64,000 bases of DNA from Minisyncoccia bacterium (GCA_050011835.1 JBEKII010000004.1:8386-72385), one strand, 5' to 3'; shown: positions 1 to 2,992, counted from the stretch's first letter. A program made the numbers and translations. The notes: generated by a model not told the origin, from the sequence alone.

Positions 1-226
1 ACCCGTTGCAGTCATTTGCCATTGTCGTTTGTTCAGACGAGATTGAAGTTTCTGGCGCACTTGGAGCTAGCGCATTTTCGACAGCAACAAGTGTCGTCTG
101 GTCGACACCAAATGCCTCCAAAACACTGATTATTGCGTTGACTTGATTCTGCGTGAGACCTGCCGCGAATGATACCGATGGAACTATAAAAATCAGAACG
201 GCTAGGAGTGTTGTAATTTTTTTCAT
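1..226 (-). CDS. Partial small secreted protein, N-terminus in window (MKKITTLLAVLIFIVPSVSFAAG...); runs off the window start
   Basis: Reverse-strand ATG at 226 with a hydrophobic signal-peptide-like N-terminus and no stop before position 1; hand translation, not in the ORF track. Confidence 0.35.
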   Translation of the reverse strand, partial: MKKITTLLAVLIFIVPSVSFAAGLTQNQVNAIISVLEAFGVDQTTLVAVENALAPSAPETSISSEQTTMANDCNG

Positions 227-1222
227 AGTAATTTTCATCTCAATCTGTAAATCCTGGAGGTTGCTTTTGTATGAAAACACAAATCCCGCCACCAGGTGGG
301 TCTTGCGACCCTACGTAAGTTTCCCTACGCAACGTACGACACGCCCCTGATGACGGGGTTTCTGTGTCGTACGATTTCGAACCATGCCCGCAGGCCATCG
401 CCGGAGGGTTTAGGTTCTTCTGTTCGGGACTATAGCACGATTTATTATTGCTTGTGTCTTTATGTATTGTTGTGGAAAACCTCTTGCAAGTTTATTTTGA
501 TTTTGATATATTTATATGTGATGCTAGTCCAGCAAGAATTTTTTTCTTGTCGAACCTTGGACTAAGGGTTGAATTCCCTCCGTCTCGTCAGCGGGAAAGA
601 GCCACAGGCTTTTTCTCGTTTAGTCAACAAGAAAAGCCTCCGCTCGGAGGTTCTTTTTTTATCTAGCCAAAAGTATCCATCACAAAGCCTCGCTTCTTGC
701 TTGGCAGGTTATGGATACGCCTGCTCGGTAAGAAATGGGGCTTCTGCTTTATCACTAAGCGGAATTAGTTATGCGAAGCATTAAACGGAGATTCTCTAAT
801 CTCCAAAATAAGCGACCAGAATTGAGTAGTCTCATCAACTTCGGAGCCGCAATCAAGAGGCAAGGATTCAGTGTGAACATGATTCATCGTTGGTTCGGGA
901 AATTGGTCGAAACCGACGATTATGAGAAGCGCGACCGGCGGGCGATTTTGCGCCATCTCGTCATTCTCTCAAACCCTGTGAGGACAACGGGAAATGGGGC
1001 AATTTTGCCCTGCTAGACGCATGAATAGGGCGTCCGCGACGGATGCTCCACGAATACTCATTGAGGAGCAGTTTCAGTCCGAATCGCCAGTACAAAATGG
1101 CGGTATAATACCTATAGCTAGGTATCGGAAATTGACAGGTGATTTCACCAGTACCGATGCTCGCGTGGTCGAACGCCTACAGTACCTAGAGCAGTTTTGC
1201 CGAGTAATCATACAGACGGAAC

Positions 1223-2899
1223 TTGATAAATATGCAGAGAGGAATCGAAACAAAACACCGAAAAGCATCTAGCGCAACGGACGCGAACGACCTTACCGGC
1301 AGAGTCGGGCTGGTATACGCACGCGTGTCCAGCAAAAAGCAAGAAACGGAAGGTTCAGGTCTTGAAAGTCAGACTGGTCGTTGTTTGAAGGATTTGCTTT
1401 CTATTCGAGTACCACACGCACGCACATTCCTCGACAGTTATTCCGGTGGTGGTGATTTTATGCAACGACCGGCAATGCGAAAACTTTTGGAATTCGTAGA
1501 CGCGAACCCTCACAAGAAATTCCTCGTTGTATTCGACGATCTTTCTCGGTTCGCGCGAGATGTCCAATTCCATCTCAAATTACGAGCAACCTTCAAAGCT
1601 CGTGATGTTTTATTACGCTGTTTGAACTTCAATTTAGATGACAGTCCGGAGGGCGAGATGGTTGAAATTATGATGGCGGCTCAAAATCAGTATCATCGCA
1701 AAAGTAATCGTCGGCAAGTTGTTCAGAAAATGAAAGCTCGGCTAGAATCTGGCTATTGGCCGTTTGCTCGTAAAAGAGGATATACGCTTACTCCAGACCC
1801 TGTGCATCACGTACTCGCGGTTCCAAACGGGGAAAGTAAAATACTCACTTCGGCTCTAGAAGGTTTTGCTAGTGGGAAATTGGTACGGAAAATAGATGTT
1901 GCTCGGTTCCTCGTTGATGGAGGTTTTTGGAAAAAGAAACGACCGCCAGAAAAATATCTTGACCAAGTATCGGTGATTTTGAGCGATTCATTTCTTGCTG
2001 GTTTTGTTGAGTATGCGCCGTGGGAAGTTGAGCGACGACAAGGACACCATCAAGGTCTTATATCGCCTGCCACTTTTGAGATAATTCAAACGCGTCTGCA
2101 CAGAAACATTACCGGAGTACGAATACGAAAAGACACCACCGAGGATTTTCCTATGAGAGGATTAACGCTCTGCACTTGTGGCAAACCTTACACGGCGGCA
2201 TACAGCAAAGGACGATCTAAACGATATGCCTACTATTTTTGTCAGAATAAGTCTTGTGAATTTTATGGTAAAGCCATTCCAAAGAAATCTATTGACGATA
2301 ACTTCGCAAGGGTGCTACAGCGTGGAAAATTGAAGCCGGAGATTGGCAAAGTTGTTGGAGAGGTTTTTGAGGCCGTGTGGAAACAGGCGATAAATAACCT
2401 TGAAAAGCAGGACGACCGTCGTAGGCAAGAAATCGGGAACTTGAATGAAGAATTGCGAGGTCTTACTGAACGCGCCAATAAAGCCAAAAATGACCGAATA
2501 AGAGGGGTCTACGAGAAGCGTATGGAGGAAATCGCCCAGATAATAGAGGACAGCCAAGGGCAAACTACTAACGACGCAGGACACCTATTCACGCCTTATA
2601 GAACCGCTTTAGACAAGGCGACGAAGTTGGTAAAAAGCCCTTATGTTGTTTGGCGGAAATTGGATGCACGCGAAAAGCACGGCCTCTACTTCTTCATTTT
2701 TGACGAGAAAATCGTGTATGCCAAGAATGAGGGATATAGAACCGCAGAAATACCAACAACTGCAAGGTTATTTGAGGAATTTGTTACTGAGAACTCTTCT
2801 TATGTGGGCATGGAGGGATTTGAACCCTCAAGTCTTGCGACATACGCTTCTGAAACGTACGCGTATACCAATTCCGCCACATGCCCGTGCCCCTGGTAG
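1223..2899 (+). CDS. Large serine recombinase (resolvase/invertase-family integrase)
   Basis: N-terminal resolvase catalytic motif GLVYARVSSKKQ; central recombinase domain; zinc-ribbon-like CTCGKPYTAAY...YYFCQNKSC; coiled-coil C-terminal region. The last ~95 nt of the ORF overlap tRNA-Leu and tRNA-Arg on the opposite strand, so the 3' end is uncertain. Confidence 0.8.
   Translation: MINMQRGIETKHRKASSATDANDLTGRVGLVYARVSSKKQETEGSGLESQTGRCLKDLLSIRVPHARTFLDSYSGGGDFMQRPAMRKLLEFVDANPHKKFLVVFDDLSRFARDVQFHLKLRATFKARDVLLRCLNFNLDDSPEGEMVEIMMAAQNQYHRKSNRRQVVQKMKARLESGYWPFARKRGYTLTPDPVHHVLAVPNGESKILTSALEGFASGKLVRKIDVARFLVDGGFWKKKRPPEKYLDQVSVILSDSFLAGFVEYAPWEVERRQGHHQGLISPATFEIIQTRLHRNITGVRIRKDTTEDFPMRGLTLCTCGKPYTAAYSKGRSKRYAYYFCQNKSCEFYGKAIPKKSIDDNFARVLQRGKLKPEIGKVVGEVFEAVWKQAINNLEKQDDRRRQEIGNLNEELRGLTERANKAKNDRIRGVYEKRMEEIAQIIEDSQGQTTNDAGHLFTPYRTALDKATKLVKSPYVVWRKLDAREKHGLYFFIFDEKIVYAKNEGYRTAEIPTTARLFEEFVTENSSYVGMEGFEPSSLATYASETYAYTNSATCPCPW
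2805..2886 (-). tRNA. tRNA-Leu(CAG), type II with long variable arm
   Basis: Hand fold: acceptor GGGCATG/CATGCCC, anticodon stem TACGT/GCGTA, loop TTCAGAA (anticodon CAG), long variable arm, T-arm GAGGG-TTCAAAT-CCCTC, discriminator A; no encoded CCA. Confidence 0.8.
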
Positions 2900-2959
2900 G
2901 AATCGAACCTACATAACTGGCTTAGAAGTCCAGTGTTCTATCCATTGAACTACAGAGGC
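2888..2959 (-). tRNA. tRNA-Arg(TCT)
   Basis: Hand fold: acceptor GCCTCTG/CAGGGGC (one G-U), D-arm GTTC...GAAC, anticodon stem CTGGA/GCCAG, loop CTTCTAA (anticodon TCT), T-arm GTAGG-TTCGATT-CCTAC; 1 nt from tRNA-Leu. Confidence 0.8.
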
Positions 2960-2992
2960 GATGCACTCCCTCTACCCTAACTCATACCGGCA

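Follow-up and report, generated by a model that had tools for sequence, protein, structure and literature searches.

The first 2,807 nucleotides (nt) of a 64-kb stretch of DNA from a Minisyncoccia (Patescibacteria) bacterium are very probably the right-hand part of a genomic island that its own large serine recombinase (LSR, or serine integrase) inserted between a tRNA-Leu(CAG) gene and the tRNA-Val(TAC) gene found at this position in relatives. We refer to the whole 64-kb stretch as the window and give all coordinates as window positions; L-numbers denote the loci compared and P-numbers the homologous proteins. With its relatives in Patescibacteria, or the candidate phyla radiation (CPR), this element makes up a very large family of integrative islands that had not been described before, although LSR islands at tRNA and transfer-messenger RNA (tmRNA) genes were already known as a kind.

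A preliminary description of the window had suggested the border of an integrated element beside tRNA genes, and this is borne out both by empty sites in relatives and by a close copy of the element at another tRNA. Relatives whose PilM is 56 to 78% identical carry tRNA-Leu(CAG) followed directly by tRNA-Val(TAC), without the LSR. Such empty sites occur in at least 15 relatives, which keep pilMNO, a gene for a 103-amino-acid (aa) protein, tRNA-Arg(TCT), tRNA-Leu(CAG), and tRNA-Val(TAC), often free of spacers. The empty junction of L123 reads …CCATGCCCAC followed immediately by GGGCGATTAGCTCAG, with tRNA-Val beginning right after the short core sequence discussed below; in the window, the same CCAC runs into element DNA instead of tRNA-Val. 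What related genomes show at the genus level is therefore presence and absence of the LSR rather than conserved synteny without insertion polymorphism. The closest element, L004, lies in another genome and adjoins tRNA-Ala(TGC). Its recombinase is 93% identical to that of the window and its DNA 89.5% identical over window positions 275 to 2807; homology ends at 275 on the left and identity stops at 2807 on the right.

The right end of the element coincides with the 3' end of tRNA-Leu(CAG) (2804 to 2886, minus strand; ARAGORN, and Rfam tRNA at 59.1 bits), the integration target, which is intact through A73 and C74. It abuts, without a spacer, the host gene for tRNA-Arg(TCT) (2887 to 2959, minus strand; ARAGORN and Rfam), an arrangement shared by relatives. 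The point at which identity to L004 stops, together with junctions shared among elements, defines GTGG (2804 to 2807) as the common core of the right attachment site (attR) and as the putative crossover region. This core is the complement of tRNA positions C71-C72-A73 and the next C, that is, of the CCAC 3' end. As reported in the preliminary description, the integrase open reading frame (ORF) has no stop until 2899; it spans 1223 to 2899 on the plus strand and encodes 558 aa from a TTG start, although homologues and an independent gene call both place the true start at ATG 1232, giving 555 aa. The overlap with the tRNA genes was also described correctly in that all of tRNA-Leu is covered antisense, but the part of tRNA-Arg involved is not its first 12 nt; it is the 3'-terminal 13 nt, stop codon included.

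Only part of this ORF is conserved. Pfam, PHROG, our alignment, and the AlphaFold2 (AF2) model of a homologue delimit an LSR body of 525 aa (1232 to 2806, plus strand), which ends with a Val codon inside GTGG and so overlaps the CCAC end of the tRNA. What follows is a nonconserved extension of about 30 codons and a stop (2808 to 2899, plus strand), antisense to tRNA-Leu and to 13 nt of tRNA-Arg. Among 31 aligned homologues, the C termini are conserved up to ...RLFEEFxxxNSxxV[D/E] and then diverge; beyond the body, nearly all read xGxEP..., the antisense translation of a tRNA T-arm, and in the window the replacement tail is GMEGFEPSSLATYASETYAYTNSATCPCPW. The ORF meets no stop until 2899 because integration swapped the native tail for antisense-tRNA residues. 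A regulatory antisense function of the ORF/tRNA overlap was considered and rejected, since the overlap follows from an attP site inside the integrase gene. The tRNA genes themselves are packed with spacers of 0 to 1 nt and encode no CCA (Arg-Leu in the window; Arg-Leu-Val in relatives L092, L095, and L123), so their 3' maturation must use cleavage at the 5' end of the next tRNA and CCA addition. The insertion parts tRNA-Val from the upstream tRNAs of its cluster.

The native tail can be located elsewhere in the family. When the C-terminal endings of 120 homologues were compared, four carried an alternative conserved ending, ...VDTSYKTLNRLKTFLRRFWEHYQSSPALRKALS. An iterated hidden Markov model (HMM) found the segment coding for this tail in 37 loci, which we treat as complete elements; it lies on the integrase strand, 3.3 to 11 kb upstream of the integrase end, and the elements accordingly span 3.3 to 11 kb, with a median of 6.6 kb. 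The segment comprises 33 codons with the consensus xxxKTLNRLKxYLSRFWxYYQSSPxLQKALENA and is preceded by the core, GTGG(AC). Its entropy by codon position is 0.95/0.86/1.27, its invariant F, W, L, and Y codons vary at the third position alone, and nearly every copy reaches a stop after about 33 codons; AF2 predicts two helices (predicted local distance difference test [pLDDT] of 72 to 85). By this codon signature, the tail segment is genuine protein-coding sequence under coding selection. More than 90% of the family members are in the tail-swapped state. Where two elements lie in tandem at one target, as in L022, L023, and L025, the left attachment site (attL) of the next element restores a complete tail to the first integrase. 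L019 (1428 to 4082) holds three tail segments within 2.7 kb, suggesting decayed or minimal elements. A native-tail copy without an adjacent tRNA is found in L001 (346 to 17158), flanked on one side by SIR2_2, DUF87, and GmrSD_N defence genes and on the other by a block with a tyrosine integrase, helix-turn-helix proteins, and BubE/M78; the arrangement may reflect a composite island or the nesting of one element within another.

Both junctions could be compared in 33 elements. At attL, host flank, GTGGAC, and tail follow one another, while at attR the integrase leads through GTGGAG into tmRNA antisense or through GTGGAC into tRNA-Ala antisense; at tRNA-Leu, the corresponding sequence is GTGGGG in L018 and GTGGGC in the window. 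In the 33 elements, attL and attR share GTGG(A) and then diverge, which confines the crossover to GTGG, no finer. L005, at tRNA-Ile, has GTGCAC at both attL and attR, and the core there is GTG. Where the target encoded CCA, as in L005 and L010, C75 and A76 stay with attL and the gene is intact only to C74. ARAGORN called tRNA genes neither at attL nor within the elements, a search in which short tDNA fragments are undetectable, and the aligned junctions share only the core. Judged from these alignments, attP lies within the integrase gene, and upon integration the final ~33 residues of the protein are replaced. For the element under study, neither tblastn nor the iterated HMM found a tail segment in the window, which also lacks tRNA-Val; since, in addition, the gene at its left edge runs on to 547 aa (see below), the element must be at least 4.2 kb long, with attL to the left of position 1.

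The window recombinase is an LSR. Its body carries, in order, a catalytic domain with its Ser in YARVSSKKQ, a recombinase domain, a four-Cys zinc ribbon, a coiled coil, and a C-terminal domain. Pfam Resolvase (PF00239) matches residues 31 to 178 at 1.3e-18 and a PHROG integrase family matches at 1.6e-48; Zn_ribbon_recom reaches 7.9e-5 and 23.4 bits, slightly below its cut-off of 25.3, and in NCBIfam, XisF and CcrB/C are matched only weakly, below threshold. Many homologues carry precomputed PF07508 and PF13408 annotations. In the 31-homologue alignment, YARVSS and the cysteines C314, C316, C337, and C342 are invariant, and the window gene is intact, with every family-invariant residue kept. 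The AF2 model of homologue P0004 (pLDDT, 81.8) shows the catalytic domain, the long helix E, the recombinase domain, the zinc ribbon with an inserted coiled coil of ~80 residues formed by the long helices H368-416 and H420-446 (pLDDT, ~70 to 90), and the C-terminal domain; Foldseek matches this model to the full-length SPbeta, Bxb1, and phiC31 integrases over ~545 columns at 13 to 17% identity. More than 1,500 proteins match the window LSR at an E value of ≤1e-5, over 120 of them being about 50% identical, and 553 of 600 candidate stretches from species-representative genomes encode a relative. The family was found in Patescibacteria-type metagenome-assembled genomes (MAGs) only. The 2.9 million viral contigs of IMG/VR yielded two distant matches; against at least 553 in genome representatives, a phage origin was rejected. 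JGI gene calls skip the intact integrase in L089 and L090, in contrast to L088 (Logan), presumably because of the tRNA overlap.

In the loci examined (many of the remaining ones are truncated at a contig end or have tmRNA-like peptides), the LSR body overlaps the 3' end of a minus-strand target gene by 2 nt. The target is tRNA-Ala (TGC, GGC, or CGC) in 23 loci, tmRNA in 23, tRNA-Leu(CAG) in three (the window, L018, and L037), and tRNA-Ile(TAT) in one (L005-7). A variant geometry occurs in L015 and L031, whose integrases have an extra APCDAVPCMVD insertion and whose tRNA-Ala begins 17 to 23 nt further downstream than elsewhere. The information content of the arms is 27.8 bits for P (inside the integrase gene), 26.8 for P' (the tail), 25.9 for B' (the tRNA side), and 5.2 for B (the host flank). 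Throughout the 33 elements, B' carries the T-arm sequence GGAnTCGAACC, with GAAC 14 nt from GTGG, and P' carries AAAACATTGAACC (codons K-T-L-N-R), with GAAC 19 nt from GTGG. For the A118-type integrase of Listeria, the rule is that the zinc-ribbon motif lies 5 bp nearer the centre in attB than in attP (PMC3783163). The present elements follow this 5-bp offset between P' and B', from which we infer binding by the protein itself.

These features suggest how integration might proceed. The attP site would lie within the integrase gene, ~33 codons ahead of the stop, and can be reconstructed as …TATGTGG/ACACATCA…TTGAACC (the slash marks the end of the core); the corresponding junction in the free form would read …GAGAACTCTTCTTATGTGG followed by AC and the tail. 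The LSR would bind the T-arm DNA of a tRNA or tmRNA gene as its B' half-site, through the zinc-ribbon motif (A)TCGAACC 14 bp from the core, and in P' a coding look-alike, TTGAACC, within the codons K-T-L-N-R and 19 bp from the core. Strand exchange within GTGG would leave the tRNA intact through A73-C74, drop any encoded CCA, and move the tail-coding segment to attL, and the integrase would then end in antisense-tRNA sequence. The enzyme thus appears to read the T-arm and CCAC end of the target gene, which would explain why close relatives sit at different tRNAs. A broader proposal would hold that only this B' end is needed while the B arm is free, so that few changes retarget the enzyme, and that the tail exchange is a built-in switch of state and directionality; taken jointly, these claims are speculative and more probably wrong than right. 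Were they true, the full-length protein would integrate and the tail-swapped one would be locked, or excision-competent without a classical recombination directionality factor (RDF), and few changes would shift the target between tRNA-Ala, tmRNA, tRNA-Leu, and tRNA-Ile.

Inside the element lies a structured RNA, LOOT (Rfam RF03000; 298 to 416, minus strand), detected at 74.5 bits against a gathering threshold of 46.4 (E = 2e-13; model positions 1 to 121). The sequence features that the preliminary description had listed here are all present: CCCTACG occurs twice (309 to 315 and 323 to 329), a nested palindrome with the arms CGTACGACAC (333 to 342) and GTGTCGTACG (364 to 373) surrounds CCCC-TGATGAC-GGGG (344 to 358), and the GC content falls to 0.415 to 0.435 over positions 201 to 800, compared with ~0.47 to 0.50 around them. 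Their reading as an attachment site or border does not hold, since they make up the LOOT gene and the region holding its promoter, 2.4 kb into the element. The CCCTACG repeats form helices 5 and 6, the 10-bp palindrome arms helix 3, and the CCCC/GGGG hairpin helix 4. For 53 distinct homologues, in an alignment that was itself fitted to the covariance model and whose covariation should be read with that in mind, 93% of cells are paired, 38 of 40 pairs show compensatory changes, and none of 500 shuffles reaches the observed score. Counts of G-U versus A-C are 74:2 in helix 5 and 40:0 in helix 6; tolerance of G-U but not of A-C indicates that the structure exists as RNA on the minus strand. Helices 5 and 6 end in GNRA or UUCG loops. 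Helix 3 is hypervariable yet almost purely Watson-Crick (555 Watson-Crick, 14 G-U, and 17 A-C). The internal loop CCUAAA/GCAUGG resembles the 11-nt receptor for GAAA tetraloops; with the GAAA loop of helix 5, this would suggest a compact tertiary fold. An unusual block-wise "cross-covariation" of LOOT has been noted (Rivas 2020), in agreement with the hypervariability of helices in our alignment.

A covariance model built here and run over 84 LSR loci found LOOT in ~49 of them (~60%), always inside the element, 300 to 4,500 nt upstream of the integrase, and in either orientation. In ~290 kb of related DNA without this LSR family there was a single LOOT, beside a distant LSR at tRNA-Val. In this locus (L135, 14472 to 17312), a 598-aa LSR of an unrelated lineage (15453 to 17249) ends inside tRNA-Val(TAC), and a divergent LOOT (15198 to 15323, minus strand) is followed by a gene for a signal-peptide protein, the same architecture as in the window. 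Within the same tRNA cluster, this tRNA-Val neighbours the tRNA occupied in the window.

The RNA appears to have its own promoter. An extended -10 element, TGCTATAGT (429 to 437, minus strand; identified by motif comparison), places its hexamer 12 nt upstream of LOOT. A -10 hexamer matching in at least five of six positions is present in 33 of 52 LOOT loci; in 26 of these 33 it ends 19 to 24 nt upstream of the model start, 19 times with TGn. On the other side, the alignment of 53 LOOT loci shows a conserved 3' flank (ACCUGGUGGCGGGAUUUGUGUUUU; 256 to 297, minus strand), in which a short hairpin and CUUUUUGU, a U-rich tract, follow helix 6. RNAalifold found helix 6 only and no consensus hairpin in this flank, so the 4-bp stem is a reading of the alignment; the flank may serve as an attenuator or terminator. 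We also considered that the two flanks might pair in a closing helix, but this has no support from covariation. Conservation extends beyond the Rfam model at both ends (flanks in L008 to L087, e.g., L026:8232-8251 and L020:9313-9330): on the 5' side, a ACAACUGAAUAAG box separates the -10 element from the model start in many loci, though not in the clade of the window, and on the 3' side a (C)CUGGUGGCGGGCUUUUUGU segment is present throughout. An RNA of ~150 nt is probably the functional unit.

In most loci an ORF starts 17 to 77 nt downstream of LOOT, and 42 of 54 such ORFs encode an N-terminal transmembrane (TM) or signal segment, being otherwise diverse; BLAST clustering found no common gene family among them, the shared property being this hydrophobic N-terminal segment. 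Several of the exported proteins (in L021, L023, L027, L045, and L079) share a signal peptide followed by the motif ALASWWNPFSWF and form an unannotated family. In 12 of 53 LOOT loci, a copy of at least 9 nt of the helix-3 5' arm stands shortly upstream of the ATG of the next ORF, while none of three control comparisons reaches 9 nt. These copies are exact over 9 to 11 nt and lie 32 to 59 nt downstream of LOOT (e.g., L023:2869, L034:8867, L060:7950, and L041:9375). By its complementarity, the 3' arm of helix 3 could alternatively pair with, and sequester, the start region of the next gene. The window LOOT has no such copy before its downstream gene. The copies were also considered as att-like sites, a possibility we rejected: locus-wide there are 22, against 11.8 in controls, and the excess is the start-codon copy. 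In the window, the downstream gene is represented by its 5' part, 79 codons for a signal-peptide protein (MKITMKKITTLLAVLIFIVPSVSFAAG...; 2 to 238, minus strand), and continues past the window. The protein has an N-terminal hydrophobic score of 2.6, reaches at least 401 aa in L090, is 100% identical to the 547-aa P0121 (named from a Minisyncoccia MAG), and has no Pfam match.

Several interpretations of the LOOT block have to be weighed. That the repeats, nested palindrome, and AT-rich stretch between 300 and 540 form a composite attachment site recognized by the integrase is hardly credible. Palindromes do flank LSR crossover sites in general, and a Watson-Crick-only, hypervariable inverted repeat such as helix 3 would by itself also fit a site acting as DNA; but the score against the LOOT model, the strand-specific G-U tolerance, and the GNRA or UUCG loops all describe an RNA, homology to other elements runs on at both sides of the block, its distance and orientation relative to the integrase vary, and the actual junctions are the GTGG cores at the tRNA end and the tail segment. 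A second copy of the palindrome, which the preliminary description had envisaged, is not found in the window, where the arm has three matches with at most one mismatch and 2.3 are expected. LOOT appears to be transcribed leftwards, from a promoter that lies in the AT-rich region, and at about even odds we favour a structured 5' leader of the exported-protein cargo gene. Against this, Rfam lists LOOT as a small RNA (sRNA) of unknown role, from a screen whose main text does not mention it (Weinberg et al. 2017), and the U-tract could be a full terminator, making LOOT stand-alone. Its main rival is accordingly a trans-acting sRNA of the island, which is possible if less than probable: the RNA has its own promoter and a short hairpin and U-tract right after helix 6, and the genes downstream belong to no common family, yet the next ORF follows so closely, sometimes ~5 to 15 nt past the U-tract, that there is no room for a separate promoter, and both the predominance of TM and signal-peptide proteins and the helix-3 copies before start codons, absent from controls, tie the RNA to the next gene. 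By analogy with the bridge RNAs of IS110, LOOT might instead be a cofactor or guide by which the integrase chooses its target tRNA. It co-occurs with tRNA-targeting LSRs of two distant families, its helices are hypervariable, and GGGCAUGG in the window LOOT equals the 5' acceptor strand of tRNA-Leu. We rejected this role as extremely unlikely, given that GCAUGG belongs to the conserved family consensus irrespective of target and that the LOOTs of L004 (tRNA-Ala) and L005 (tRNA-Ile) mismatch their own targets; moreover, the window and L004 share an identical helix 3 at different targets, many elements lack LOOT, the att arms carry ordinary protein-recognition motifs, and the helix-3 sequence recurs at the downstream start codon, not at att sites.

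As for the integrase, it could be a fixed, domesticated, or decaying remnant, a dead gene that simply reads through into the tRNAs. The element is present in every same-species contig recovered (five samples; 99.9 to 100% identity), the native tail is missing from the ORF, and the JGI callers skip the gene in two loci, all of which would fit. Yet an intact ORF with all family-invariant residues, a 93% identical protein at a different tRNA in a different genome, a tail-swapped state that is the normal integrated form of the family, and attL tail segments still under coding selection make a remnant improbable. We therefore retain insertion of the island by its own LSR, against which several points count. 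Neither a same-species empty site nor a circular junction was found, which leaves current activity in this genome unproven. The attL of this element is unseen, as the window and all retrievable same-species contigs, which extend leftwards by just 977 nt beyond the window, end inside the element. The B arm is unconserved, which is unusual for an LSR attB; the dinucleotide at which crossover takes place, T-arm binding by the LSR, and what the tail does are all inferred. LOOT, for its part, is undetectable in ~40% of the elements, and its varying orientation relative to the integrase places it outside the recombination machinery.

The remainder of the element consists of small genes and a second structured region. 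A promoter-like TTGCAA-17-TATATT with TG (484 to 512, plus strand), a consensus match, faces the small ORFs and the integrase. It is followed on the same strand by a structured leader (515 to 660; minimum free energy, -52.2 kcal/mol; z = -4.24) with a predicted tRNA-like three-way fold. This leader contains a T-arm look-alike, AGGGUUGAAUUCCCU (565 to 579), ~15/17 identical to the tRNA-Leu T-arm on the opposite strand, as well as a 14-bp hairpin and a terminator-like hairpin (635 to 652) followed by a U-run; it has no Rfam match and is conserved in L004 only. Of the two small ORFs on the plus strand, neither of which matches Pfam, NCBIfam, or PHROG, the one at 771 to 1016 (81 aa) belongs to a family present in 5 of 37 complete elements and 9 of 53 LOOT contexts. 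The other (994 to 1272; 92 aa) overlaps the integrase start and represents the commonest accessory family (25 of 37 and 31 of 53, respectively), always directly upstream of the integrase on the same strand; we regard it as a candidate for a regulator or a directionality factor. Pfam, NCBIfam, and PHROG brought up no known RDF family. Besides the small ORFs, recurrent genes encode a MerR-like protein of ~276 aa (13 of 37 elements), methylases, and SocA/Panacea; DNA methylases and the SocA/Panacea protein count as cargo, as do the SIR2/DUF87/GmrSD genes of L001. Among the recurrent element families there are no replication, transfer, or virion genes and no second resolvase-domain ORF.

Judged by its description, the closest published analogue is the ssrA islands of Dehalococcoides (McMurdie et al. 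2011, PMC3146451). These likewise have a ~540-aa CcrB-like LSR (DsiB) at the island edge by the tmRNA gene, are nonconjugative and nonreplicative, carry variable cargo, and accrete in tandem at one site; their integration module also contains a tRNA-like structured locus (pseudo-tRNA), with which the leader at 515 to 660 may be compared. The 20-bp ssrA repeat, T-loop insertion, and paired small serine recombinase DsiA of the DsiAB type are not found here. Instead, the core of the present elements is 4 to 6 bp long and lies at the very 3' terminus (CCAC), neither a displaced fragment of tDNA nor a second recombinase was seen, attP falls within the integrase ORF, the targets include several tRNAs, and the hosts are Patescibacteria. 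With classical tRNA and tmRNA islands (Islander/TIGER; Williams 2002) they share an integrase next to the 3' end of the target, a target that stays functional, and tandem arrays. Classical islands are overwhelmingly tyrosine-integrase elements that duplicate a 15- to 50-bp tDNA segment (PMC4383910), whereas in the present elements the enzyme is a serine integrase, GTGG(A) is the only repeat left behind, and any encoded CCA is lost. The displaced direct-repeat fragment of tDNA that defines Islander elements is accordingly missing, attL and attR sharing only GTGG(A/C)(C). The tycheposons of Prochlorococcus (Hackl et al., bioRxiv 10.1101/2020.12.28.424599) are also small cargo islands at tRNA and tmRNA genes, a minority of them with LSRs; 910 of 937 use tyrosine recombinases, and many tycheposons have replication genes, none of which were found in the present elements.

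The domain series, fold, short att sites with conserved P, P', and B' arms, and 5-bp shift of the zinc-ribbon motif are common to the present LSRs and the A118/LI, SPbeta, Bxb1, and phiC31 integrases. Unlike those phage LSRs, the present family is rare on viral contigs, has attP in its own gene and an unconserved B arm, and comes with no recognized RDF; the virion or packaging genes and the viral contigs that would mark a prophage are likewise wanting. Integration through a coding sequence has parallels among tyrosine integrases: in SSV1-type elements the integrase gene is split roughly mid-gene, and in the integration-dependent immunity of mycobacteriophages, a tyrosine integrase system, the repressor is truncated on integration. 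As in those cases, attP lies in coding sequence and the free and integrated forms encode different proteins, but here only the last ~33 aa of a serine integrase are exchanged. LOOT has the same six helices here as in the Rfam entry, beyond which our results extend its conserved flanks at both ends, place it in tRNA-targeting LSR islands, and link it to a promoter and to exported-protein genes.

Most database C termini of this LSR family are antisense-tRNA artefacts of integration, and some annotation pipelines drop the gene altogether. The orphan RNA family LOOT gains a genomic setting and a testable role as a leader. The T-arm look-alike in the integrase gene, the 5-bp offset between P' and B', the unconserved B arm, and the presence of 93%-identical enzymes at different tRNAs bear on the retargeting of serine integrases for genome engineering. 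For the Patescibacteria, which have almost no genetic tools, a natural element as compact as ~3.3 kb, residing at tRNA-Ala or tmRNA genes, would be an obvious candidate vector.

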